From contig CANQLL010000001.1 of NCBI GenBank assembly GCA_947624705.1, positions 1 to 60,216 of the forward strand: a DNA stretch of 60,216 bases. Reading direction: 5' to 3'. This DNA is from an uncultured Bacilli bacterium. Its GTDB lineage: Bacteria > Bacillota_I > Bacilli_A > RF39 > UBA660. Below, in pieces: positions 462-51,795 of this stretch. A program made the position numbers and the translations under genes. The notes under the pieces are model-generated. The model had not been told where the DNA came from. It worked only from the letters and a program-made list of their open reading frames with translations, and did not search any database. Position 1 is the first letter of the stretch; the number at the start of each line of letters is the position of its first letter.

Positions 462-690
462 CGAAAAAACAAATGCGGGAGAGGGCAATATATTAGTACT
501 TAATAGAGAGTTATTGATTGGTGGAAAATAACAAGAAAAATATATTGTAGATCACTTCCCAATGTGTTACTTTGAAAAAAAAGTAGAAGTAAACGTAACC
601 TCGCGTTAAGAGATAAAGTGTATGATAAAATCATAAATTAAGGTGGTACCACGCGTAAATGCGTCCTTAAATTTATGATTTTTTATTTAT
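462..690 (+). promoter_or_regulatory. T-box riboswitch leader (Ile specifier) upstream of ileS
   Basis: AGAGA-type stem I element around 505-512. Candidate specifier AUC followed by A at 551-554. T-box core AAGGTGGTACCACGCG at 640-655. Terminator-like arms 628-643 and 665-681 are followed by a T-tract just before ileS. Confidence 0.85.
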
Positions 691-706: not shown

Positions 707-3700
707 ATGAAAAATTTTAAAGAGTTAGACAAAAGAAAAGTAAGTGAAGTAGAAGAATCGATTTCTACTTCTTGGCAAAGCGTTAATGTTATGCACGATA
801 AACAAGTAAACTTGCGAAGTAAAGATAAAACCTTTGTCTTTTATGATGGGCCAGCTTTTGCCAATGGTTTTCCTGGTTTACATCACATGGTATCTAAAAA
901 TTTAAAAGATACAATAACTAAATATCATGTTATGAATGGCCAAAAAGTAATTCGGAAAATTGGTTGGGATACCCATGGCCTACCAATTGAAAATCATGTT
1001 GAGAAAAAATTAGGTATATCTTCTAAAAAAGAAATTGAAGCTTTAGGAGTAGCTAAATTTAATCAGGAATGTCGCAACAGTGTGCGCGAAAATGAAAGTG
1101 CTTTCACCAATTTAACTAGGAAAATGGGCCAATTTTTTGATGTTGAACATCCATATTTAACTTATAAAAATGAATATATTGAAACCGAATGGTGGATTTT
1201 AAAAGAAATGTTTAAAAAAGATATGTTCTATGAAGGAACACGCGTTGTTCCTTATTGTCCGCATTGTGGAACAGGCCTTGCCACCCATGAAGTTGCTCAA
1301 AATTATCAAACTGACACGGCCATTACGGTTTATGTCCCTTTTAAGAAAAAAGATGAAGATATTTACTTTTTAGTTTGGACCACTACCCCTTGGACTTTAT
1401 GTGCTAATGTCGCTTTATGTGTTCATCCTGATTTAGATTATGTTTTAGCCGAATCAAAAGGAACAAAATTTATCTTAGCAAAAAGTTTAGTGAATAAAGT
1501 TTTAGGGGAAGAAGCAAAAGTTTTAGATACTTTTAAAGGTAAAACTTTAGAATATCAAGAATATGAACAATTAATTGATTCTTTTGAAGTTGATAAAAAA
1601 GCGTTTTATGTAACCTGTGATGATTATGTCACAGCCGAAGACGGAACTGGTATTGTTCACATTGCGCCGGCTTTTGGTGAAGATGATGCTAATGTCGGTA
1701 AAAAATATGATTTACCATACCTAAATCCCGTTGGTAAAGACGGTTGTTATGTGGGCGGATTATGGGACAAAAAGTTTGTTCATGATGTTAATGAAGAAAT
1801 TGTTGCTTATTTAAAAGAAAATGGTAAATTATTTAAACGTCAAAAAGTATCGCATGAATACCCACATTGTTGGCGTTGTGATACTCCTTTAATTTACTAT
1901 TCAATGCCAAGTTACTATATTAAAGTTTCCCACATGCGTGATGATTTAGTAAAAGCCAATGCTAAAGTTAATTGGTATCCGGCTTATGTAGGCGAAAAAC
2001 GTTTTGCCAATTGGTTAGAAAATGCGCGGGATTGGAATGTTTCTCGGAGTCGTTACTGGGGTAGTCCAATACCTTTTTACAAATGTAGTTGTGGACATAC
2101 CCATATGATTGGTTCGATTGCCGAGTTAAAAGAAATGGCTACGACTAAAGTAAATGATGATTTAGATTTACATAAACCATATATTGATGAAATAAAAATT
2201 AAATGTCCAAAATGTGGGGGCGAAATGAAGAGAATTGCCGATGTTTTAGATTGTTGGTTTGATTCTGGTTCAATGCCTTTTGCGCAATATCATTATCCTT
2301 TTGAAAATAAAGAATTATGGGAAAGTCAATTTCCAGCTGATTTCATCTGTGAGGGTATTGATCAAACACGGGGTTGGTTCTATACTTTAATGGTTATTTC
2401 AACTTTCATTAAAGGGTGTTCACCTTTTAAAAATGTTTTAGTTAATGATTTACTTCTTGATAGTGAAGGTAAAAAAATGAGTAAATCTAGAGGCAATATT
2501 GTCGAACCATTTACAACTATTAAAGAATATGGGGCTGATACCGTAAGATTTTACCTTCCTTATGTTTCACCCGTTTGGACTCCTTTAAAATTTGATATCG
2601 CTGGTTTAAAAGAAGTTTATTCGAAATTCTTTAATCCTTTAAAAAATACTTATAGTTTCTTTTGTACTTATGCTAATATTGATAAAATCGAAACTGATGA
2701 TTGTCAAATTGCTTATGAAAAAAGAGAAGAAATTGATAAATGGTTATTATCTAAATATAATCGTTTAGTTAAAAATGTTCGGGCTTCTTTTGATGAATAT
2801 GATTTAAATAAAGTAGTACATTTCTTAGCTAACTTTGTTTCTGATGATTTATCAAATTGGTATATTAGACGTAATCGTAATCGTTTTTGGCAAAGCGAGT
2901 TTAATGATTCGAAAAAAAGTGTTTATATTACAACTTATGAAGTATTAGTGGGTTTAGCCAAACTAATCGCCCCAATTACACCATTTATATCGGAAGAATT
3001 ATATCGTAATTTAACTAATGAAGAATCAGTTCATTTAACTGATTATCCAAAAGTTAACCAAAAATTAATTAATGAGACAATTGAGACCAAAATGGATTTA
3101 GTTCGCGATTTAATTAGTATCGGTCGCCAAGCCCGGGAAGAGGCAAAAATTAAAGTGCGTCAACCATTAAGTGAAGTTATTCTTGATGGCAAGAATAAAA
3201 ATATTTTAAAAGATTTAGTGGATTTAATTAAAGAAGAATTAAATGTTAAAGAAGTTATCTTTGAAGATGATTTAGCTAAATATATGAATTTTACAATTAA
3301 ACCTAATTTTAAAACAGCTGGACCAATTTTAGGAAATCATATTAAAGATTTAGTTAATCTTTTAAATAATTACACCGAAGAACAAATAATGGAACTTAAA
3401 AATAACCAAGAACATTATTTAGAAATAGAAAAACAAAAATATCCAATTACTTTAGATATGGTTGATATCCGAATTAATTCTAAAGAAGGTTTTGATGTTG
3501 GTACGAATAATAATGATTTTATTATCTTAAATACGAATTTAACTCCAGAATTAATTGAAGAAGGTATAGCGCGAGAATTTATATCTAAAGTTCAAAATTT
3601 ACGGAAAACTAAAGATTTTGACATTGAAAATCGCATTAACATATTATTTAATGCTAGTGAAGATTTAAAACAAGCGATTTTCAATAATTTAGATTATATT

Positions 3701-3805
3701 AAAGGAGAAACTTTAGCTGTTAATTTAGACTATACAAATGAAAAACAAAATGATATTATAGACATTAATAACAACGAGGTAAGTATTACGATTAAGAAAA
3801 TTTAG
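707..3805 (+). CDS. ileS: Isoleucine--tRNA ligase, type 2 (about 1030 aa form)
   Basis: 1032-aa ORF with a class I HIGH-like segment (PGLHHMV), KMSKS, the CP1 editing region and typical IleRS blocks (WDTHGLP, GWFYTL). Preceded by an Ile T-box. Confidence 0.97.
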   Translation: MKNFKELDKRKVSEVEESISTSWQSVNVMHDKQVNLRSKDKTFVFYDGPAFANGFPGLHHMVSKNLKDTITKYHVMNGQKVIRKIGWDTHGLPIENHVEKKLGISSKKEIEALGVAKFNQECRNSVRENESAFTNLTRKMGQFFDVEHPYLTYKNEYIETEWWILKEMFKKDMFYEGTRVVPYCPHCGTGLATHEVAQNYQTDTAITVYVPFKKKDEDIYFLVWTTTPWTLCANVALCVHPDLDYVLAESKGTKFILAKSLVNKVLGEEAKVLDTFKGKTLEYQEYEQLIDSFEVDKKAFYVTCDDYVTAEDGTGIVHIAPAFGEDDANVGKKYDLPYLNPVGKDGCYVGGLWDKKFVHDVNEEIVAYLKENGKLFKRQKVSHEYPHCWRCDTPLIYYSMPSYYIKVSHMRDDLVKANAKVNWYPAYVGEKRFANWLENARDWNVSRSRYWGSPIPFYKCSCGHTHMIGSIAELKEMATTKVNDDLDLHKPYIDEIKIKCPKCGGEMKRIADVLDCWFDSGSMPFAQYHYPFENKELWESQFPADFICEGIDQTRGWFYTLMVISTFIKGCSPFKNVLVNDLLLDSEGKKMSKSRGNIVEPFTTIKEYGADTVRFYLPYVSPVWTPLKFDIAGLKEVYSKFFNPLKNTYSFFCTYANIDKIETDDCQIAYEKREEIDKWLLSKYNRLVKNVRASFDEYDLNKVVHFLANFVSDDLSNWYIRRNRNRFWQSEFNDSKKSVYITTYEVLVGLAKLIAPITPFISEELYRNLTNEESVHLTDYPKVNQKLINETIETKMDLVRDLISIGRQAREEAKIKVRQPLSEVILDGKNKNILKDLVDLIKEELNVKEVIFEDDLAKYMNFTIKPNFKTAGPILGNHIKDLVNLLNNYTEEQIMELKNNQEHYLEIEKQKYPITLDMVDIRINSKEGFDVGTNNNDFIILNTNLTPELIEEGIAREFISKVQNLRKTKDFDIENRINILFNASEDLKQAIFNNLDYIKGETLAVNLDYTNEKQNDIIDINNNEVSITIKKI

Positions 3806-6924: not shown

Positions 6925-8688
6925 GTGACACATATGAATATTAAAGATTTATACATCGAGTTTTTTAAAGAAAGAAAGCATAAACAAATTCCTAGTGCTC
7001 CCGTAATTCCGGAAAATGATCCTTCTGTTTTGTTTAACACTGCCGGAATGCAACCTTTAATTCCTTATTTAATGGGTCAACCTCATCCTTATGGTACGAG
7101 ATTAGTTGATTATCAAAAATGTATTCGGACTAATGATTTAGATTCAGTTGGTGATAAAACTCATCATACTTTTTTTGAAATGTTAGGTAATTGGTCTTTA
7201 GGAGATTACTTTAAAAAAGAAAGTTTAACTTGGAGTTTTGAATTCTTAACCCAAAAATTACATATTGATCCCAAAAGATTAGCTGTTACGGTTTTTGCTG
7301 GGAATGATAAAATTGAAGAAGATAAAGAATCAATTGCCATTTGGCAAAGTTTAGGAATTAAAGAAGAAAAAATAGCTAAAACCAAAAATGATAATTTTTG
7401 GATTGCGGGGGAAACTGGTCCATGTGGACCAGATTCCGAAATTTTCTATTTTAATAGTAAAGATGAAATCCCCGAAGTTTTTGATCCCGAAGATGAGCGT
7501 TATGTAGAAATATGGAATAATGTCTTCATGCAATATTATAAAGATGAAAATGGTAATTTTAGCGATTTACCGAAAAAAAATGTTGATACAGGAATGGGTT
7601 TAGAAAGAATAACAGCAGTTTTAGAAAATGTTGATGATAATTATAGGTCGAGTATTTGGCAAGATGTTATTAAAAAAATCGAAGAAATAACTAATTTAGA
7701 TTATCAAAATCATGAAAAAAGTATGCGTATTATTGCTGATCATCTTAGAACGGCTGTTTTTATAGCAGCTGATAATAGTGGAATTAAACCAAGTAATACT
7801 GACCAAGGTTATATTTTAAGAAGATTAATTAGAAGAGCTATACGTCATGCCAAAAAATTAAATATTGATATTAATAGTAATTGGGAAGTAGAAATAGCTT
7901 TAGTTATAATGAATAAATATGCTAAATATTATCAAGAGCTAGTAACTAATAAAGATGTTGTTTTAGAGGTTTTAACGAATGAAAAAATAAGATTTAATAA
8001 AACTTTAGAAAAAGGTTTAAGAGAGTTTGAAAAAATAACGGCTAAATTAGAAGGTAATGTTTTAAATAAAGATTTAGCTTTTAAATTATATGATACTTAT
8101 GGTTTTCCAATTGAGTTAACCCAAGAATTATCGCAAGAAAAAAATATTGAAGTTGATGTTGAAGGCTTTAAAGAAAAATTTAAAGCTCATCAAGAATTAT
8201 CTCGAGCTGGAGCTAGTCAAAAATTTAAAGGCGGCTTAGCGGGGAATAGTGAGATTGAAACCAAATATCACACTGCCACCCATTTACTAAATGCGGCGTT
8301 AAAAGTGGTAGTTGATCAAAATGTTCATCAAAAGGGGAGTAATATTACTTCCGAAAGAATGCGTTTTGACTTTTCTTGCGACCATAAGTTAACTGAAGAA
8401 GAAAAGAAACAAACTGAAGATTTAGTTAATAAATGGATTGATGAGGGACTTGATGTAACGGTGGAAGAAATGCCTAAAGAAGAAGCTTTAAAGTCTGGAG
8501 CAGAATGTATGTTTATTGAAAAATATCCCGATATCGTTACTGTTTATTCAATTGGGGATGTATCTAAAGAACTTTGCGGTGGCCCACATGTGAAAAGCAC
8601 TAAAGAAATAGGGCATTTTAAAATAAAAAAAGAAGAAGCATCTAGTGCTGGAGTAAGAAGAATAAAAGCCGTTATTCAAGATGATTAA
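6925..8688 (+). CDS. alaS: Alanine--tRNA ligase, short form (587 aa; minimal editing core, no C-Ala domain)
   Basis: AlaRS N-terminal blocks are present (DPSVLFNTAGMQP, FFEMLGNWSLGDYFK, DTGMGLERI, LYDTYGFPIEL). The editing-site zinc motifs HTATH and CGGPH are both present. About 290 aa shorter than typical bacterial AlaRS. Confidence 0.85.
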   Translation: MTHMNIKDLYIEFFKERKHKQIPSAPVIPENDPSVLFNTAGMQPLIPYLMGQPHPYGTRLVDYQKCIRTNDLDSVGDKTHHTFFEMLGNWSLGDYFKKESLTWSFEFLTQKLHIDPKRLAVTVFAGNDKIEEDKESIAIWQSLGIKEEKIAKTKNDNFWIAGETGPCGPDSEIFYFNSKDEIPEVFDPEDERYVEIWNNVFMQYYKDENGNFSDLPKKNVDTGMGLERITAVLENVDDNYRSSIWQDVIKKIEEITNLDYQNHEKSMRIIADHLRTAVFIAADNSGIKPSNTDQGYILRRLIRRAIRHAKKLNIDINSNWEVEIALVIMNKYAKYYQELVTNKDVVLEVLTNEKIRFNKTLEKGLREFEKITAKLEGNVLNKDLAFKLYDTYGFPIELTQELSQEKNIEVDVEGFKEKFKAHQELSRAGASQKFKGGLAGNSEIETKYHTATHLLNAALKVVVDQNVHQKGSNITSERMRFDFSCDHKLTEEEKKQTEDLVNKWIDEGLDVTVEEMPKEEALKSGAECMFIEKYPDIVTVYSIGDVSKELCGGPHVKSTKEIGHFKIKKEEASSAGVRRIKAVIQDD

Positions 8689-8713
8689 AAATCGATAGCT
8701 TATATCGATTTTT
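8688..8713. terminator. Bidirectional terminator between alaS and the Fic/Doc remnant
   Basis: AAATCGATA (8689-8697) pairs with TATCGATTT (8703-8711), flanked by A- and T-runs. Confidence 0.65.
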
Positions 8714-8758
8714 AATTTGCTTTTAATCTGCAACACTATTATTTATTTTTGCTTTTTA

Positions 8759-9432
8759 TTATTTCCGATTCAAATCAATCCCATCAATGCTAGTATCATA
8801 AATCCATTGTTTTAAATCTAAATTATCTCCTGTTTCATAAAATTTAGTTAATTTTTCAAAGAATATTGGTTGATTTTCTTGTGAAATAGTTATTATTCCA
8901 CAACCATTGTCAATCATTATTTTATTAACAAATAACGTAGCAACTCTTTTATTGCCATCAATAAACATTTGTCTTCTCATAATCCAAAGCATTATTTCAA
9001 TAGCTATTTCCGTTTTTGTTTTTTCCGGTTGATTTAATAATTCTTTTAGTTCTTCTTTTATTTGACTTTCAATAGGAAATTGAGGTTTCCAAAATGTTCC
9101 CCAATATTTACAGGTGTACTTCTTAATTTTCCTAAATCTTGATCTAAAACTAATTTATCACAAGTTAATTTATGTAAATGGCTTAAAGCTTTAAAATCAT
9201 AATTTATATCATTGTTTTCCAGTATAAATTCCCAAGAATATTTTAAATTATTAATAGCAATGATGTTATTAACAATAAGTCCATTAACAACACCACCATC
9301 ATATATTACTTGAGTTTCTTGATATGTAACGTCAATACCATCTAAATTAGCACTTTTCCAAATATAATCTACAATATTTCTTTTTGCTACAAATATATTT
9401 TATTCTCTTGTTAAATTAAATTTATTTTTCCT
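8759..9432 (-). pseudogene. Fic/Doc family protein gene, disrupted
   Basis: The C-terminal ORF 8759..8992 carries a degenerate Fic/Doc core (FIDGNKRVATL). Hand translation upstream gives Fic-like sequence (AKRNIVDYIWKSANLDGIDVTYQETQVIYDGG...QDLGKLRSTPVNIG). It is interrupted by an in-frame TAA near 9390 and a frameshift at the C/G run near 9098-9101. Confidence 0.7.
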
Positions 9433-9749
9433 AAAAATTTTCTCCTACCATTTAATGTAAATAAAATCCAAAGTGGTTATTAGCTTTACAGGTAAAGTTT
9501 TTAGGATTTAAAACTAATTTATTTTCTAACTTATATTAGCACAGGAATGAATTCTATGCAATTAATTGGGCAGCTTTATTATAACTTTAAAAAACGTAAA
9601 ATCAAAAATTAAATTCTCAATTTAAGAAAAATATAAATTTATCCTAAAAATGAATTTTAGCCTAAAATTTGAAAACAAAAAACGTTTTTCTGGTTAGCAA
9701 AAAAAGCTTTTTAGCACGATTTTTGAAGCTAAAATCCATTTTTAGCAAT

Positions 9750-9778
9750 TTGCTATTCATTTTTAAATATGGTAATTT
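9750..9778 (+). promoter_or_regulatory. Extended -10 promoter of small-peptide module 1
   Basis: TTGCTA (9750-9755), 17-nt spacer ending in TG-n, TAATTT (9773-9778). The inferred start is at GGATGCA (9786). Confidence 0.45.
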
Positions 9779-9844
9779 TTGAGACGGATGCATTGAAGCA
9801 CCCGGACTAGTGTTTTCCTTAATTTTTAAGGAGGGCTGATAATT

Positions 9845-9916
9845 ATGCGAGAAAAATTTTTTTATCAAGTAATTATTGTGCTACTTTTGCTAGCACTAAT
9901 ACTACTTACTATTTAG
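9845..9916 (+). CDS. 23-aa hydrophobic peptide MREKFFYQVIIVLLLLALILLTI (candidate type I toxin)
   Basis: ATG 9845 to TAG 9914-9916, with AAGGAGG at 9828-9834. The SD lies inside a perfect 7-bp hairpin, TCCTTAA (9816-9822) with TTAAGGA (9826-9832). Below the ORF-track size cut-off, and paralogous to the peptide at 19978..20055. Confidence 0.5.
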   Translation: MREKFFYQVIIVLLLLALILLTI

Positions 9917-9991
9917 TAGAAGCTAGACATCTTAGATTTTTCAACTAAACAACTTAGATTTAACATAATATTGGTTTGGTTGATACATTTT

Positions 9992-10083
9992 AAAATAAAT
10001 TAAAAGAGCACCGAATGCCACAGGGGGTCATACGGTGCTTTCCCAAGAAGGAAAGCACTAGGCCTTAAAGGCTTTGTGTATCC
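9992..10083 (-). ncRNA. Candidate antisense sRNA of module 1 (about 90 nt)
   Basis: TTGACT (10119-10114), 18-nt spacer, TAAAAT (10095-10090). The start is near GGATACA (10083). Two hairpins compete for AGCAC: 10035-10043/10050-10058 and 10006-10012/10033-10039. The distal one is followed by CTTTTAATTTATTTT on the minus strand. Confidence 0.4.
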
Positions 10084-10191
10084 ATTTCCATTTTAATATA
10101 TATTTTTATTTAAAGTCAATAAAAATAATACTCAAAAATTTTTTATTTGGAAATATAGACTAAAAACATAATCATTATAATTTTAAATATT

Positions 10192-11214
10192 TTAATTTTT
10201 TCTTTTAATCATTCCTAATACTAAACAGATACTTAATATAAATCCTCCTAAAATATAAGATTCAATTTTGTATAAACCTAAAGCATAATAATAATGTTTA
10301 TTAAATATACAAACGCCGATAAACATAATGGTAAATAACCATAAAACATATATAAATTTGGAAATATTCTTCTTTTGAGAAAAACAACTTTTAATAATCT
10401 TTTTAATATTATAAGCACTCATAAAAGCTAAAATTATTAAATCAAATAACCAGGTAAACATTAAAATATTTTCAATATTTTCAATAAAATTATAAATTCT
10501 TAATTTCTTTAAAGTCATATATTCAGGAAATCTTAAAATATTAGCTAAAGTTGGACCTAAAACACCATTTATAGAAATTAAGGTTAAAATAATAGTTAAG
10601 CTGCCAATTAAATATCCTAAAATAGCATCTTTATATTTTAAATTATCTTGTTTAACATTTACAAGTAATAAAGAAGGAACACTACTTAATAAAGCATAAA
10701 CAATACTAGCTTTTAATATTCCTAATTTATGACCATAAAGAATTGGTAAAAAATTATTATAATCAGTTATAATTAAACTAGATATAACTTTAAAACTAAA
10801 GATTACTATACTTATTGGTAAAAGCATTTCAGCTACCTTAGCAAAAGAAATAACGCCTTTATAATTGCCATAAATAACTGCTACTAAAATCGTTATTCCA
10901 ATTACAAAAGAGGGAGTTAAAGGAAGTAGAAAAGAACTAGTCATAGTTGTTAAAGAAATTATCACATCATGTAAACAAAAACTTCCTAAAAGAAATAAAA
11001 GAATTTTAAGGAAAATATTATTTTCTACCTTTATTTTTTTCTTTCTAATAAAATATAGAAAAGATATAACTATTAAACCTAGAAGAGTTCCAACTAAACC
11101 ACTTAACCAAGCATCATTATAACTTAAATGAAATATTTTAGTTATCCCTAAACCAAAAAATAATGATCTTGTTAAAAAATAACTTAAAATTATATATTGT
11201 TTTTTTGTTATCAA
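10192..11214 (-). CDS. Spore germination protein, GerAB/GerKB-type permease
   Basis: 340-aa polytopic membrane protein. Last gene of a gerA-type operon and overlaps the upstream gene by 4 nt. Confidence 0.8.
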   Translation of the reverse strand: MITKKQYIILSYFLTRSLFFGLGITKIFHLSYNDAWLSGLVGTLLGLIVISFLYFIRKKKIKVENNIFLKILLFLLGSFCLHDVIISLTTMTSSFLLPLTPSFVIGITILVAVIYGNYKGVISFAKVAEMLLPISIVIFSFKVISSLIITDYNNFLPILYGHKLGILKASIVYALLSSVPSLLLVNVKQDNLKYKDAILGYLIGSLTIILTLISINGVLGPTLANILRFPEYMTLKKLRIYNFIENIENILMFTWLFDLIILAFMSAYNIKKIIKSCFSQKKNISKFIYVLWLFTIMFIGVCIFNKHYYYALGLYKIESYILGGFILSICLVLGMIKRKN

Positions 11215-16328: not shown

Positions 16329-16736
16329 ATGTTCATTACAATCATTGGAAGAAATATAGTGAATTTATTACCGAAGAAAAAACTTCTCAAAAATTTATAT
16401 ACAACGGATAATTTACCATTAGGCTTAGCTTTGTTTAATGAAGAAAATAATATTGTCGGTTTTTGCGTGTTAAAAATTGAGAATTTAAAATTATATCCCG
16501 AAATATATCCTTGGTTATCTGATGTCATGATTTTAAAAGAATATCGAAATTTAGGTTATGGAAGAATTTTAGTAAATGAAGCTTTGAAATATTTGAAGAC
16601 TTTAGGTTATGATAAAGTTTATGTTTGGACAGACCAAGCGCCTTTGTTTTATGAAAAATTAAATTTTAAATTTGTTCAAAAAGTAGAGAAAAATAATGGC
16701 GGATATGGTAAACTATATTCGAAAGAAGGAATTTAA
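16329..16736 (+). CDS. GNAT family N-acetyltransferase (N-terminus apparently displaced by a frameshift; likely original start 16274)
   Basis: GNAT core with the acetyl-CoA motif YRNLGYGRILV. A 45-codon ORF with an AGAGG SD starts at 16274 in another frame and reads like the missing N-terminus. The frames meet at the A6 run 16377-16382. Confidence 0.75.
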   Translation: MFITIIGRNIVNLLPKKKLLKNLYTTDNLPLGLALFNEENNIVGFCVLKIENLKLYPEIYPWLSDVMILKEYRNLGYGRILVNEALKYLKTLGYDKVYVWTDQAPLFYEKLNFKFVQKVEKNNGGYGKLYSKEGI

Positions 16737-17552
16737 ATGAAAAAAGTTATTAGTATATTTTTAACTATTATAATGTTTTTTACAGCAATGGAAATTATAA
16801 TTACTTATTCTTTAAGGAGTATTTTAGCTAGTGATGCGATGCAAAAATTAATTAAAGAAACTAATGTTACGGAAATAGTTGAAGAAGTTAAAGAAAGTGG
16901 TGATTTAGATTTTGTTTATGATGAAGCCCAAAAATATGGAGTAAGTGAAGAAAAAGTTGATGAAGTATTAGCTTCTGATGAAGCAAAAGAATATTATGGA
17001 GCTATTTTACAAAAATATTTAGACGGAACTGATACAACTTTAGATGCTGATACCCAAAAATTTATTGAAGAAGCTACAGAAAAATATAATATTGATATAA
17101 CCGAAGAACAAAAAGAAGAATTAAAAAATAATATTAATGAAGCAGTTATTGTAAATAAAAAAGAAGTAGTTCATAATGATTTAGCTAATAATATCAATAA
17201 ATATACAAGTTTTGTGAAAAATAATGCTATATTTATAATTGCTATTGTTAGTTTATTAGTCCAAATATTATTAATTGTTATTTTAAATATTAAAAAACAA
17301 AACTTTGTGAGTTATTTTGGTGTTTGTTTGTTATTATTAGCAATCTTTACTGCTTTATTTACTTTTGGTTTACAAATAATTTTAGCTATTTTAAATCAAG
17401 ATATAAGTATTAATTTAGTCAAATTATTTGGAAGTATGTTACAAAAAGGATATATTTTAAGTTTAATATTATTTGTTTTAATGATTATTTGCTTTATCAT
17501 TAATAAAAATATTAAAGTAAATCCGAAAGGAAAAGTTATCAATGAAGATTAA
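16737..17552 (+). CDS. Hypothetical membrane protein
   Basis: 271 aa. N-terminal TM, acidic helical middle and several C-terminal TM segments. Abuts the GNAT stop codon. Confidence 0.5.
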   Translation: MKKVISIFLTIIMFFTAMEIIITYSLRSILASDAMQKLIKETNVTEIVEEVKESGDLDFVYDEAQKYGVSEEKVDEVLASDEAKEYYGAILQKYLDGTDTTLDADTQKFIEEATEKYNIDITEEQKEELKNNINEAVIVNKKEVVHNDLANNINKYTSFVKNNAIFIIAIVSLLVQILLIVILNIKKQNFVSYFGVCLLLLAIFTALFTFGLQIILAILNQDISINLVKLFGSMLQKGYILSLILFVLMIICFIINKNIKVNPKGKVINED

Positions 17553-19165: not shown

Positions 19166-19798
19166 ATGTTAAATGATAATAATCGTCAAGAATTAATTGC
19201 TAAAATAGAAAAATATCGAGAAGCGGGTTATGATCAAAGTAAATTATTAGAAATTGAAAAAGAAATTATTTGGTTTGAAAATCCCGAATTATCTTTATAT
19301 TTTGCGAAAAATATTAAAGATAGTGATATAGCAGTTCATAAAAGTATTGTTTGCCAAAGTAAAAATGCCAATTTGATGTGGGAATTCATGCAAAAAGTCT
19401 GCTTATGTGGTGAGTATCGAAATGAGTTAGCCGCTCATATAATTGATACTAATGATGAACATTTTATTGCTTTATTATGTGAAGATGATCAAATAAGTTC
19501 TATAATAAGAGAAAATGCTATAAAATGGTTGCTTAATAATGGTCATAAATTTCACATTTATGATTATCTAATAGGAAATGGTGAGTACATTAATAGTAAT
19601 GGCGATTATATTGATAATGATAGAATTTGTACTAAAATGATTAAAAAAATTTATCAAGATTTAACTGATGCTGAAAAAGAACATTTACGTTATTTATATC
19701 CTCTTACTATGCAAGCAATTGAAAAAACGATAGAAGAAAATGAAGCATTTAATGATATACAAAAATTGGTTAAAGCGATAAAACCAATAGAAAGCTAG
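19166..19798 (+). CDS. Hypothetical protein
   Basis: 210-aa ORF with an AGGA SD. No motif recognised. Confidence 0.45.
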   Translation: MLNDNNRQELIAKIEKYREAGYDQSKLLEIEKEIIWFENPELSLYFAKNIKDSDIAVHKSIVCQSKNANLMWEFMQKVCLCGEYRNELAAHIIDTNDEHFIALLCEDDQISSIIRENAIKWLLNNGHKFHIYDYLIGNGEYINSNGDYIDNDRICTKMIKKIYQDLTDAEKEHLRYLYPLTMQAIEKTIEENEAFNDIQKLVKAIKPIES

Positions 19799-19892
19799 TT
19801 TTAAAATGGCTGTTCGAAACAAAAAACAGCTTGTAAAACAATTATTTTTATGATACTATGAATATGTCAAGGAAACTTGCATAAAATAAAAA

Positions 19893-19984
19893 GGATACAT
19901 TTGATTGGGTGAATCAGATGTTATCCCTTAATTGGGTTTCATCTGAAATCAACGGTTGTTGAAATCAGATGTTTTTGCTATTTT
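19893..19984 (+). ncRNA. Candidate antisense sRNA of module 2 (about 90 nt)
   Basis: -10-like TAAAAT (19882-19887), start near GGATACA (19893). TCAGATG (19914-19920), CATCTGA (19940-19946) and TCAGATG (19965-19971) can form alternative pairings. The terminator hairpin 19940-19953/19958-19971 plus T-tract overlaps the stop codon of the peptide ORF on the other strand. Confidence 0.45.
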
Positions 19985-20055
19985 AGAAGTAAAATAATTA
20001 CTACTAAGAATAGGAGTAATATTATAATAAATTGAGAAAATTCTCTCTTTGTCAT
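19978..20055 (-). CDS. 25-aa hydrophobic peptide MTKREFSQFIIILLLFLVVIILLLK (candidate type I toxin)
   Basis: Internal ATG at 20055 of the 73-aa track ORF, preceded by AAGGTGGTGG (20070-20061). An ungapped alignment to the 9845..9916 peptide gives identities at M1, F6, Q8, I10, I11 and L13-15. Confidence 0.5.
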   Translation of the reverse strand: MTKREFSQFIIILLLFLVVIILLLK

Positions 20056-20131
20056 AAATACCACCACCTTTCTCTTATCGTTTGATAATTGAAAGGGAAA
20101 GCATCTGATAAATTCAAATGTATCCACAAGC

Positions 20132-20160
20132 ATTATATCAAACAAATGTTTTAAAAACAA
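20132..20160 (-). promoter_or_regulatory. Extended -10 promoter of small-peptide module 2
   Basis: Minus strand TTGTTT (20160-20155), 17-nt spacer, TGATATAAT (20140-20132). Inferred start at GGATACA (20125). Confidence 0.5.
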
Positions 20161-20360
20161 TATTTTTTCTAAATTTTTTGTTGCGTTTTTATTTAACATT
20201 TAATTATCAAATTAACTTTTAAAAATAATCATTTATAATAAAATGTAACAAAAAGAAGGAGAAAAAATATCTAACATTATTCTTACTTATCAATTAAAAA
20301 CAAAACAAGCTTAAATACTAGTTAAAACTAGTATTTTTTGTTATAATCTTTAAGAAGGAT

Positions 20361-21305
20361 ATGATTACATTGAAAGATTTAAAAGTTATATTTATGGGAA
20401 CTCCTGATTTTGCTGTGCCTGTCTTAGATGTTTTAATAAAAAACACTAAGGTTATTTTAGTAGTATCACAACCGGATAAATTAGTAGGTCGTAAACAAGA
20501 ATTACAAAAAACACCAATTAAAAAATTAGCAGAAGCTAACAAAATTGAAGTATTTCAACCAATTAAAATTAGAGAAGATTATCAAAAAATTATAGATTTA
20601 AAACCGGATATAATTATTACGTGTGCTTATGGGCAAATAATTCCTAAAGCATTACTTGATTTACCTAAACTAGGTTGTATCAATGTCCATGCTTCATTAC
20701 TTCCTAAATTGCGGGGTGGAGCTCCTATCCATCATGCTTTAATTGATGGTTATCAAAAAACGGGAGTAACTATTATGTATATGGATGAGGCTATGGATAG
20801 TGGCGATATTATTGCACAAAAGGAATATGAAATAAAAAATTCTGATAATGTTGGAACCTTGCATGATAAATTATCTTTAATGGGAGCTAATCTTTTATTA
20901 GAAACAATCCCCGCTATAATTAATAAAACTAATAATAGAATTAAACAAAATAGCCAAGAAGTAACTTTTGGTTATAATATAAAAAGAGAAGAAGAACATC
21001 TTGATTTTCATAAAACTTGTCAAGAAATATATAATCAAGTACGGGGTTTAAATCCTTGGCCTTTAGCAAATATTATTATAGATGATAAAGAAATGAAAGT
21101 TATAGAGTGTACTTATGAATTAAAAGAAATTAATCAAGAAGTAGGAGTAATTTGCGAAGTATCTAAAGATAAATTAGGGATAACAGTCCAAGATGGTATA
21201 GTTTATTTAACTAAAGTTAAACCTTTTGGTAAAAAAATAATGGATATAAGTGCTTATTTAAATGGTCAAAATAAAGAGGATTTATTAAATAAAAAAATAA
21301 AGTAG
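20361..21305 (+). CDS. fmt: Methionyl-tRNA formyltransferase
   Basis: FMGTPDFAVP N-terminus, the HASLLPKLRGGAPI catalytic block and a C-terminal OB-like domain. Confidence 0.95.
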   Translation: MITLKDLKVIFMGTPDFAVPVLDVLIKNTKVILVVSQPDKLVGRKQELQKTPIKKLAEANKIEVFQPIKIREDYQKIIDLKPDIIITCAYGQIIPKALLDLPKLGCINVHASLLPKLRGGAPIHHALIDGYQKTGVTIMYMDEAMDSGDIIAQKEYEIKNSDNVGTLHDKLSLMGANLLLETIPAIINKTNNRIKQNSQEVTFGYNIKREEEHLDFHKTCQEIYNQVRGLNPWPLANIIIDDKEMKVIECTYELKEINQEVGVICEVSKDKLGITVQDGIVYLTKVKPFGKKIMDISAYLNGQNKEDLLNKKIK

Positions 21306-51252: not shown

Positions 51253-51281
51253 TTGTATAAAGAACAAATGTTTGACATAAT
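51253..51281 (+). promoter_or_regulatory. Extended -10 promoter of small-peptide module 3
   Basis: TTGTAT (51253-51258), 17-nt spacer, TGACATAAT (51273-51281). Inferred start at GGAATGCC (51289). Confidence 0.45.
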
Positions 51282-51342
51282 TGTTTTAGGAATGCCTAGT
51301 TAGTCTGGGTACTATTCTCCTTTTCTTTTTAAAGTGGAAGTT

Positions 51343-51441
51343 ATGAAAAAAACAGAGAAATATCTTTGTACTATCATAATACTCCTTAATCTTAATATTG
51401 TGATTTTAATCTTACTTATAAAAATAGTACCAACTGGATAG
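51343..51441 (+). CDS. 32-aa hydrophobic peptide MKKTEKYLCTIIILLNLNIVILILLIKIVPTG (candidate type I toxin)
   Basis: ATG 51343 to TAG 51439-51441, with a weak GGAAG SD. Charged N-terminus followed by a single TM-like stretch. Same module architecture as the loci at 9.8 and 20.0 kb. Confidence 0.4.
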   Translation: MKKTEKYLCTIIILLNLNIVILILLIKIVPTG

Positions 51442-51497
51442 GTCGGTACTAATCTAAGATTTGGAATAGTACCTAACTCAGCAAAATTAGGTATTCC
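51418..51497 (-). ncRNA. Candidate antisense sRNA of module 3 (about 80 nt)
   Basis: Minus-strand TAAAAT (51509-51504), start near GGAATACC (51497). Hairpin 51470-51476/51487-51493, then hairpin 51426-51431/51445-51450 followed by ATTTTTAT on the minus strand. It overlaps the peptide stop codon. The promoter block is 30/32 identical to that of the module 2 sRNA. Confidence 0.45.
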
Positions 51498-51541
51498 TTT
51501 TTTATTTTATGCAAATTTCTTTGACATATTAATCATAACAT

Positions 51542-51597
51542 AAAGACGACTTTTTTGACAAGTCGTCTTTTGCTATACTCGAAAGTTCGAGTTTTTA
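51542..51597. terminator. Two hairpins between module 3 and tRNA-Arg
   Basis: AAAGACGACT (51542-51551) pairs with AGTCGTCTTT (51561-51570). ACTCGAA (51577-51583) pairs with TTCGAGT (51586-51592), followed by TTTTT on the plus strand. Confidence 0.5.
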
Positions 51598-51602
51598 TCA
51601 AT

Positions 51603-51679
51603 CTGGCGTCCACAGTAGGATTCGAACCTACGACCGTACGCTTAGAAGGCGTATGCTCTATCCAGCTGAGCTATGTGGA
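51603..51679 (-). tRNA. tRNA-Arg (anticodon UCU)
   Basis: The reverse complement folds as a cloverleaf. Acceptor GTCCACA/TGTGGAC, D-arm GCTC-AGCTGGATA-GAGC, anticodon stem TACGC/GCGTA with loop CTTCTAA, T-arm GTAGG-TTCGAAT-CCTAC, and an encoded CCA. Confidence 0.93.
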
Positions 51680-51795
51680 CGTTTTTGCATTTGCAAATTG
51701 ATTATATCTTAATTTACTAAGATTTTCAATAACAATTTGCAATCTTTTTTAGGATTGTCTTAAAATTTAATTTTATACGTAAAAAAACTATCTTT

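Follow-up and report, generated by a model that had tools for sequence, protein, structure and literature searches.

A stretch of 60,216 nucleotides (nt) from an uncultured Bacilli bacterium (contig CANQLL010000001.1, positions 1 to 60,216 of the forward strand; hereafter the window) contains what is probably a type I toxin-antitoxin-like locus. We call this locus Module 1, and it appears to belong, as a divergent member, to a small family of uncultured gut Bacilli that is not yet catalogued. From the sequence and its predicted folding, we put the probability of this reading at about 0.6. A hydrophobic peptide would be the toxin and a convergent antisense RNA would neutralise it, roles that we consider probable; that the structured messenger RNA (mRNA) of the peptide is real is highly probable. 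The host carries at least three modules of this type in the 60-kb window, and they plausibly form a new sequence family of a known kind, not a new principle. A toxin/antitoxin-RNA pair had been proposed here in an initial annotation made from the letters alone, and the proposal is now supported by paralogues, covariation in a terminal helix, alleles that spare the stems and an accessory genomic context.

Type I systems are typically recognised by a short hydrophobic peptide, an occluded Shine-Dalgarno (SD) sequence, a cis-antisense RNA over the 3′ region and a fold-back between the 5′ and 3′ ends. The toxin side of Module 1 has the following parts, the last of which is an open reading frame (ORF):

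9750-9778, plus strand: toxin promoter predicted from the sequence, with -35 box TTGCTA (9750-9755), a 17-nt spacer ending in TGG and -10 box TAATTT (9773-9778)
9786-10090, plus strand: predicted peptide mRNA of ~300 nt, its 3′ end (~10083-10090) placed from the fold, as no canonical terminator sets it
9828-9834, plus strand: SD sequence AAGGAGG, 10 nt upstream of the ATG
9845-9916, plus strand: ORF of 23 codons and a stop, translated as MREKFFYQVIIVLLLLALILLTI

The initial annotation had called the extended -10 promoter, the 5′ end GGATGCA at 9786, the buried SD and the 23-codon ORF; all are present in the sequence and the translation was confirmed. The 5′ end starts 7 nt past the -10 box. 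The SD lies within the perfect hairpin TCCTTAA/TTAAGGA (9816-9822 / 9826-9832), which ViennaRNA lengthens to 11 bp. The peptide, by its sequence a membrane peptide with a single helix, consists of a polar MREK head followed by 19 mostly hydrophobic residues. Among 837 small-ORF starts in the window, this ORF alone combines a GGAGG SD with a 17-residue hydropathy of at least 3.0. Module 1 thus encodes, behind a ribosome-binding site of its own, the kind of short hydrophobic peptide (<60 residues) that is expected of a type I toxin.

We folded the predicted RNAs, a check that the initial annotation had suggested. The plus-strand RNA 9786-10090 reached a minimum free energy of -89.5 kcal/mol (z = -5.43), which none of 100 shuffles equalled. 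In this fold, nt 1-35 of the mRNA pair with its last 36 nt through helices of 8, 5, 2 and 14 bp, so that the two ends close on each other as had been anticipated, with 29 bp in total (25 Watson-Crick and 4 G-U). The elements involved are:

9786-9799, plus strand: 5′ arm of the terminal helix P1 (GGAUGCAU, then GAAGC), pairing with 10071-10083
9807-9822, plus strand: anti-SD strand CUAGUGUUUUCCUUAA, whose partner is either the local SD or the 3′ element at 10048-10061
9941-9983, plus strand: 3′ untranslated region (UTR) hairpin predicted by folding, with a 10-bp stem and a 23-nt loop in which alleles differ
10035-10058, unstranded: hairpin A (GUGCUUUCC / GGAAAGCAC), incompatible with hairpin B (described below) and, in the mRNA, with pairing to the 5′ UTR
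10048-10061, plus strand: 3′ element AAGGAAAGCACUAG, complementary to anti-SD positions 9807-9820 with 13 Watson-Crick pairs and 1 G-U (inverted repeat I11)
10071-10083, plus strand: 3′ arm of P1 (GCUUU, then GUGUAUCC), identified by folding and covariation

The 3′ element had been noted earlier as AAGGAAAGCACTAG with its complementarity to the 5′ UTR, which holds, although it lies at 10048-10061 and not at 10049-10062. The segment TGTATCC (10077-10083), also noted, is present. Folding the reverse complement of 9786-10090 gave only -71.4 kcal/mol (z = -3.58), 18 kcal/mol poorer than the plus strand, and the end-to-end pairing was largely lost. The four pairs that are not Watson-Crick are all G-U when read on the plus strand, where the minus strand would have C-A. 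Because G-U pairs occur only on the plus strand and the reverse complement folds more poorly, the inverted repeat appears to be shaped for a plus-strand RNA and not for DNA.

A scan of intergenic DNA for hydrophobic small ORFs revealed two further modules in the window (M2 and M3), and a follow-up blastn search found copies at a locus (L018) in a related metagenome-assembled genome (MAG):

51255-51565, plus strand: M2, with mRNA from 51289 (51289-51512), ORF 51343-51441 MKKTEKYLCTIIILLNLNIVILILLIKIVPTG and a P1 3′ arm ending at 51497, then a U tract
Promoter 51561-51532 and terminator 51451-51425, minus strand: predicted convergent M2 antisense RNA (TTGTCA-18-TGnTATGAT), its terminator overlapping the end of the ORF
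19827-20160, minus strand: M3, with mRNA from 20125 (20125-19885), ORF 20055-19978 MTKREFSQFIIILLLFLVVIILLLK and P1 ending at 19893, then a U tract
Promoter ~19831-19859 and terminator hairpin 19937-19968, plus strand: predicted convergent M3 antisense RNA, its terminator over the stop codon
L018 positions 16590-17485, minus strand (MAG contig CANRDF010000004.1): L018a and L018b, complete and in tandem, and L018c, a 3′ remnant

M2 encodes a hydrophobic peptide of 32 residues, and a 13-bp helix links nt 1-13 of its mRNA to the bases directly before the U tract (fold z = -5.81). M3, within the gap 19798-20361, encodes 25 residues and has a perfect 12-bp terminal helix, GGAUACAUUUGA / UCAAAUGUAUCC, before its U tract (fold z = -10.0). 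The MAG with the L018 copies is 56% identical to the host in GerAA; the modules, whose ORFs are MDKRRTFVIKIFKYLLALATLFTICFLAFLYVMMQKGT and MSQNRKFILQIFDYIITILWQVIFILSIIKK, are flanked by a thioredoxin-like gene on one side and an ORF of 495 residues on the other. The L018 copies share 84-89% identity in their promoters and 3′ ends and differ in the ORF cores.

The five modules share one design. An extended -10 promoter is followed 6-7 nt on by a GGA start, then by an internal anti-SD, a short hydrophobic ORF, a terminal helix joining 5′ and 3′ ends from nucleotide +1, and a convergent antisense promoter. In 5/5 modules P1 begins 6-7 nt past the extended -10 box, at the expected transcription start. 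The TTGCTA-N14-TGN-TAAT layout of the Module 1 toxin promoter also occurs in both complete L018 modules. The peptides have a basic head and a hydrophobic stretch, a description that Module 1 fits. The predicted antisense RNAs of M2 and M3 reach the end of the ORF, unlike that of Module 1, and the tail after the terminal helix is interrupted in Module 1 where the other four modules have a U tract.

The terminal helix varies in a way that preserves pairing. For the predicted mRNAs of the five modules we compared the 8 nt at either end, with one bulged C dropped from L018a, and counted pairs by script because MAFFT misaligned the concatenated arms. Cognate arms form 39/40 possible pairs, and non-cognate arms a mean of 5.7/8. 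Only two of 120 permutations reach the cognate total, namely the true assignment and the swap of Module 1 with M3, whose arms are interchangeable (8/8 pairs). Positions 4-8 each show two to four pair types (U-A/A-U; G-U/U-A/A-U/G-C; C-G/G-U/U-A; A-U/C-G; U-G/C-G/U-A). No other evidence speaks as strongly as this covariation for selection on the end-to-end helix as a feature of the RNA.

M3 is also the closest relative of Module 1 by sequence (peptides, z = 3.55, p = 0.003; 5′ UTRs, z = 2.4, p = 0.03). A global DNA alignment of Modules 1 and 2 was discarded as meaningless. M2, M3 and L018a-c have a common 3′ element (nhmmer E = 1 × 10−15 to 3 × 10−22) of the form CC-U tract-AUUUUAUG(C/A)A(A/G)UUUCC, which carries the extended -10 promoter of the antisense RNA; nhmmer did not find it in Module 1 at E up to 1. 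In M2 and M3 the element also holds a strong same-strand promoter-like site past the U tract of the toxin mRNA (TTGACA-18-AATAAT, 11/12 in M3; 19841-19870, minus strand, and 51522-51550, plus strand). M2 adjoins a tRNA-Arg gene (51604-51680, minus strand).

Searches of databases placed the module in no catalogued family. For the module RNA, the Rfam 15 search that the initial annotation had called for gave no family at gathering score, and this includes TxpA/RatA, SprA1/SprA1as, SprG/SprF, Ibs/Sib, OrzO and others, with the presence of each model in Rfam left unchecked. The only antitoxin model with a hit at E up to 10 was OrzO-P, which scored 18 bits where 60 are required, and its hit at 9632-9689 falls outside the module. 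The peptide matched nothing in Pfam, including the Fst_toxin and Hok_Gef profiles, nor in PHROGs or PADLOC at E up to 10, and its sole NCBIfam match was MgtU (E = 1.2). For BsrG/SR4 there was no Rfam, Pfam or NCBIfam match at E up to 10, a result to be read with the presence of BsrG/SR4 models in these libraries unconfirmed and no direct comparison made. A tandem-copy probe of the peptide matched none of 5.8 billion proteins, and the M2 peptide none of 1.84 billion representative proteins. A motif scan for family A returned only two giant-virus MAGs, presumably by chance, and a search of the literature and supplements for the peptide string found nothing.

The peptide might not be a toxin at all. 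It could be a small membrane protein that regulates or stabilises a transporter or sensor kinase, with the antisense RNA tuning its expression, and both the RNA architecture and the ORF would suit such a protein equally well. The closest weak profile match, MgtU, is itself a non-toxic small protein. However, the modules come in several divergent copies per genome and in tandem, a pattern typical of type I toxin loci and unusual for dedicated accessory subunits. Moreover, no partner operon lies nearby, the surrounding DNA is accessory and borders a pseudogene, and a multi-layered translational lock suits a product that is not to be made. We consider a non-toxic membrane protein unlikely.

The candidate antisense RNA gene of Module 1 is predicted from a promoter-like match and from a hairpin with a U tract:

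10090-10119, minus strand: predicted antisense promoter TTGACT-18-TAAAAT, a 10/12 consensus match without TG extension, with the start at G10083, 7 nt downstream
9995-10083, minus strand: predicted antisense RNA of ~85-95 nt, complementary to the 3′ UTR of the mRNA and starting GGATACA
10006-10040, unstranded: GC-rich hairpin B, followed on the minus strand by a U tract (10005-9990) and taken as the antisense terminator, although the terminator scanner did not report it

These sequence elements, and the GTGCT/AGCAC/GTGCT arrangement whose distal hairpin precedes the U tract, are present as the initial annotation had described them. The predicted RNA folds to -27.5 kcal/mol (z = -2.67). It ends near 9995, 75-90 nt short of the ORF, which ends at 9916. 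Its 5′ third has the same sense as the 5′ UTR of the mRNA (GGAU.CA ... CUAGUG.UUUCCUU), and the complementarity between the mRNA ends stops exactly at its predicted start, 10083. A covariance model of this RNA (R1) found a single site in 357 kb, Module 1 itself.

Instead of a dedicated small RNA, the antisense transcript could come from read-through of the convergent gerA operon, whose terminator or 3′ UTR, perhaps bidirectional, the GC-rich hairpins would then be. Between the gerAB stop (10192) and hairpin B there is no other terminator-like hairpin, and 10/12 promoter matches are common in AT-rich DNA. Against this, gerAB ends 10-20 nt before tsf in relatives 85-86% identical, with no such structure. 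In M2, M3 and L018 a conserved extended -10 antisense promoter stands at the equivalent place with no neighbouring operon to be read through, and the exact stop of the complementarity at 10083 also speaks against read-through. We regard this origin as improbable; if true, it would give the antitoxin RNA another source and leave the nature of the module as it is. Past gerAB, hairpin B is the first structure resembling a terminator, so that transcripts reading through from the gerA operon, which is sporulation-specific, could still add antisense RNA to that from the candidate promoter.

Under the toxin-antitoxin reading, folding predicts a switch like that of bsrG/SR4. Transcripts that stop short of 10048 all keep the SD 98.5-99.5% paired with the local anti-SD in the 11-bp hairpin. 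Once 10048-10066 are included, the anti-SD strand moves to the 3′ element and the SD to a weaker partner, 9924-9931. Partition-function folding puts the unpaired fraction of the SD at 0.005-0.015 in nascent forms, 0.24 at full length and 0.005 with 9995-10083 masked. The closed form (-89.5 kcal/mol) is ~9 kcal/mol more stable than the separate halves (-47.1 and -33.7, sum -80.8). A structure that bars translation during transcription, as in type I systems, is thus predicted, and an internal anti-SD occurs in 5/5 modules.

We propose that the local 11-bp anti-SD/SD hairpin would hold translation off while the mRNA is being synthesised. Once the 3′ end is made, the 3′ element and the terminal helix would capture the anti-SD strand, leaving the SD ~24% open, and the peptide, presumed to be membrane-toxic, could be produced. 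Having the same sense as the 5′ UTR, the antisense RNA would compete with it for the 3′ region of the mRNA. Antisense binding would put the SD back in its lock, and the resulting duplex of ~90 bp would be a likely substrate for RNase III. As the main mechanism we rejected direct base-pairing in trans between the SD and the pyrimidine motifs GCUUUCCUU and UCCUUCUU of the antisense RNA: the 13-nt run compares with a shuffle 95th percentile of 12, so the complementarity is at chance level, and it is weakened and not kept in the L001 allele described below.

The reverse logic, as in hok and aapA1, would make the closed mRNA an inert stable pool that 3′ trimming activates, with the antisense RNA acting on the trimmed form. 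A 5′/3′ fold-back defines the hok and aapA1 mRNAs (PMC6733600; works cited in PMC8594479). In M2, M3 and L018a the SD is equally sequestered with or without the 3′ end, and P1 may there serve mainly stability. This logic fits Module 1 poorly, because an mRNA whose 3′ part is removed or masked is predicted to have a locked SD (0.005 open), and the antisense RNA could not act on a trimmed mRNA, since trimming removes the region that it targets. It is very improbable for Module 1. The SD-opening switch, predicted clearly in Module 1 alone, seems to be a module-specific elaboration; the family-wide features, as far as the folding models go, are the terminal helix and the internal anti-SD.

We compared Module 1 with known type I systems, and it lacks tested features of every named family checked. 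Folding predicts that its fold-back opens the SD, which makes bsrG/SR4, and not hok/sok or fst, its closest analogue among the families whose hallmarks the initial annotation had invoked (hok/sok, txpA/ratA, bsrG/SR4, fst). In bsrG (B. subtilis prophage SPbeta, BsrE-G-H group), as predicted for Module 1, an mRNA of ~300 nt encodes a small hydrophobic peptide, the SD is part of an internal helix, and an antisense RNA that is transcribed convergently can pair with the 3′ part of the mRNA. Unlike the Module 1 peptide, BsrG ends in a basic tail. A helix between the 5′ end and the 3′ part is present in both: nt 1-35 pair with nt 263-298 in Module 1 (29 bp, covarying in five modules), and nt 1-35 of the 296-nt bsrG mRNA pair with nt 232-262 (PMC3834814). 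SR4 binding frees nt 1-33 of bsrG, lengthens the SD helix from 4 to 8 bp and also promotes decay (PMC3834814); re-locking of the SD by the antisense RNA is thus shown for bsrG/SR4 and only predicted by folding for Module 1. The systems differ in that bsrG has a separate terminator stem-loop past P1, which Module 1 lacks, and in that SR4 (183 nt) overlaps the ORF according to T1TAdb, whereas the Module 1 antisense RNA (~90 nt) stops short of it. The overlap with the 3′ part of the ORF that characterises bsrG/SR4 is therefore missing.

In type I families of Gram-positive bacteria, the antisense RNA is generally found on the 3′ side (PMC8594479). Fst/RNAII (par, pAD1) is Gram-positive and convergent, with an antisense RNA that overlaps the 3′ end and not the ORF, as predicted for Module 1, and the Fst SD is held in an intramolecular stem-loop until the antitoxin acts (PMC8309996). 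However, the par RNAs share a bidirectional terminator, and complementary 5′ repeats let RNAII cover the start codon. In Module 1 the 5′ ends are of the same sense, such repeats are absent (the residual SD complementarity being at chance level) and the peptide has no Fst-type charged C-terminus. SprA1/SprA1as of S. aureus shows the same 3′ overlap without ORF overlap, and we found no sequence homology to it. Long-range 5′-3′ pairing and local structures that block translation during transcription are shared with hok/Sok and AapA1/IsoA1. Those systems, however, occur in Gram-negative bacteria; their antisense RNAs target the 5′ part, and the fold-back keeps the mRNA inactive until its 3′ end is trimmed. 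The candidate antisense RNA of Module 1 instead overlaps the 3′ end of the mRNA, and the fold-back would, by the folding models, loosen the SD. Module 1 has no Hok_Gef peptide, mok leader ORF or 5′-located Sok antisense RNA. The Ibs toxin is 19 residues long, almost wholly hydrophobic, without C-terminal positive charges and present in several copies per genome (PMC8309996). Unlike in Module 1, the enterobacterial Sib RNAs span the whole ORF, and there was no profile match to Ibs/Sib.

Several results weigh against the toxin-antitoxin reading. Related genomes bear on it in two ways: the two complete L018 modules share the design, which favours it, and the nearest relatives have no homologue at the syntenic site, which counts against it. 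The homology of Module 1 to M3 is statistically modest, and BLASTP of its peptide against that of M2 gives E = 4.1. Searches further afield added little. Blastn of Modules 1 and 3 against phage and plasmid collections returned only marginal matches of ~30-45 nt, DNA pattern scans of JGI metagenomes gave 3 chance matches, and in IMG/VR four DNA patterns had no match and one peptide probe no confirmed relative.

The expression signals are also imperfect. The toxin -10 box TAATTT matches 3/6 consensus positions and depends on its TG extension, a weakness that kept the promoter below the reporting level of a consensus promoter scan, and promoter-like hexamers are not enriched in the region (11 against 8.3 +/- 3.1 in shuffles). 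The antisense promoter lacks the TG and differs from the conserved one of M2, M3 and L018. A terminator scanner reported zero sites in the region on either strand, leaving the mRNA without a canonical terminator; because of its silence, the antisense terminator and the mRNA 3′ end were placed by inspection and from the predicted structures. The SD remains 76% paired in the closed form, and opening by the 3′ end is predicted clearly for Module 1, weakly to modestly for L018b and not for M2, M3 or L018a.

The last two of these points concern the peptide. It has no C-terminal basic tail, a feature of most type I toxins that IbsC, ShoB and DinQ lack; very short toxins without such a tail are known, for instance IbsC with 19 residues (PMC8309996). 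Host genes use TTA for 83% of leucine codons, and the modules avoid it (0/7 in Module 1, 2/7 in M2 and 3/7 in M3, together 5/21; pooled P = 6 × 10−9), Module 1 using mostly CTA (4% in the host). Constraints of RNA structure, foreign origin or deliberately poor translation could each cause this. Host-rare codons could also mean that the ORF is translated poorly or not at all, which slightly weakens the argument that it is coding.

Strain variation allows a further view of the RNA. The species was found in several ENA and Logan assemblies at 99.9-100% identity; its DNA is present in the ENA assemblies ERZ27249032, ERZ27249041 and ERZ27249512 and in the Logan runs ERR10663722 and ERR10663723. One contig, L001, matches the window without a difference for 12.9 kb (5,765 nt on the left side and 7,167 nt on the right) apart from a single patch:

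9955-10047, unstranded: hypervariable patch of 93 nt, the sole difference between the window and L001, with a local divergence of ~13%

The patch records ~11 mutational events at 15 positions, and the ORF is identical in both sequences. Of the 15 variant positions, 12 are unpaired in the predicted fold (P = 1.6 × 10−3); these lie in the loop of the 9941-9983 hairpin (9955-9970), in the A/U-rich U tract of the antisense RNA and in the loop of hairpin A (10042-10047), whose stem is kept. The three paired variants fall in a weak A-U hairpin at 9988-10005. No variant touches P1, the helix 9807-9820/10048-10061 or the 9941-9983 stem, and none breaks a pair of hairpin B, where A10032U in L001, counted among the 12, repairs an internal A-A mismatch. 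The L001 mRNA keeps the same architecture (-95.7 kcal/mol). In a third allele, L027, U9813C converts the G-U of the 14-bp helix to G-C. In three other assemblies the contigs stop within the module (L027 at 9850, L026 at 9868, L002 at 10071, L003 and L004 at 10103). The patch and these breaks suggest several alleles or copies in the population, through repeats or strain heterogeneity. The patch may derive from a paralogue, another strain or an assembly chimera; a diversity-generating retroelement was dropped as its source, with no reverse transcriptase nearby and an adenine bias within base composition.

A more speculative proposal, which we think quite unlikely, is that 9955-10047 is a specificity cassette, with the antitoxin RNA as a sense mimic of the toxin 5′ UTR and the 3′ UTR element as a translational activator. 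Strains or paralogues could then swap the recognition loops of a cis-encoded antisense pair and become mutually orthogonal toxin-antitoxin pairs, an immunity-type polymorphism.

Least probable of all is a non-coding repeat, miniature inverted-repeat element or recombination scar whose 35-bp repeats act as DNA around a fortuitous ORF: imperfect inverted repeats (9786-9820 / 10048-10083) do flank a 230-bp core, contigs break within it and the codon usage is unlike that of the host, but the plus-strand G-U pairs and the better plus-strand fold point to RNA, no flanking direct repeat is visible, neither the window nor 357 kb of related DNA yielded a second copy, and the paralogues keep ORF, SD and anti-SD while the arms covary, as expected of selection on RNA and not DNA.

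Type I systems are under-annotated, their peptides falling below gene-calling thresholds and their divergence outrunning homology searches, and Module 1 went unseen by Rfam, Pfam, NCBIfam, PHROGs and PADLOC. If our reading is right, the modules are a multi-copy family from an uncultured, AT-rich, spore-forming gut Bacilli lineage and a second, independently evolved instance of the bsrG/SR4 design, in which a 3′-acting antisense RNA re-locks the ribosome-binding site from afar. The five diverged copies are a ready covariation set for the terminal helix, and the strain-level patch is a natural experiment on antisense specificity. The module is of interest for annotating small toxic ORFs in MAGs and for comparing RNA switches.

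The window has 26% G+C, and its nearest genome records are MAGs labelled 'uncultured Bacilli bacterium', many from rabbit samples. A gerA-type operon and a T-box leader are present, and gene content indicates a spore-forming lineage. Module 1 lies at the right end of a 1.5-kb non-coding gap between alaS (6925-8688, plus strand) and gerAB (10192-11214, minus strand). The gap had looked accessory in the initial annotation, beside a decayed Fic/Doc gene, and this impression is borne out by the relatives and by the gene itself:

~8759-9440, minus strand: Fic-domain pseudogene with a frameshift and several stop codons, its reconstructed product 213 residues long

Fic homologues are numerous (>2,800 at E ≤ 1 × 10−10); the best 120 listed are 82-87% identical, apparently intact and 221-230 residues long. 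In the contigs fetched they stand in the contexts yabP-yqfD-VanZ-Fic-ybeY-era and HK-Fer4-Fic-DAO, never beside the module.

We compared the context of the gap 8688-10192 across loci L011, L013, L015, L016, L023 and L028. Relatives 80-85% identical in alanyl-tRNA synthetase (AlaRS) have no module downstream of alaS, and the downstream DNA differs each time. In a relative 99% identical in AlaRS (93-97% DNA identity), alaS directly precedes a T-box and ileS, again with no module, and this T-box and ileS are the pair that opens the window. Downstream of the gerA operon, none of 14 related MAG loci has the module. The trmA-gerAA-gerAC-gerAB block is kept in five full-length loci, out of seven relatives 85-86% identical in GerAA, and in one at 79%; gerAB there abuts tsf-rpsB without a gap, save in one locus with a short ORF. 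From the differing neighbours of alaS and gerAB in relatives, we infer that the gap and the module sit at a lineage-specific rearrangement junction.

Two neighbouring genes gave observations of their own. The T-box leader (464-671, plus strand; Rfam RF00230, 114.7 bits) lies upstream of an ileS-like gene (707-3805; 1,032 residues). The AlaRS encoded at 6925-8688 (plus strand) is only 584-587 residues long and comprises the catalytic domain and the second additional domain. Bacterial AlaRS usually has ~870 residues, and the usual C-terminal part seems to be missing here; at least 120 AlaRS homologues among the matches listed in the clade are equally short (582-587).

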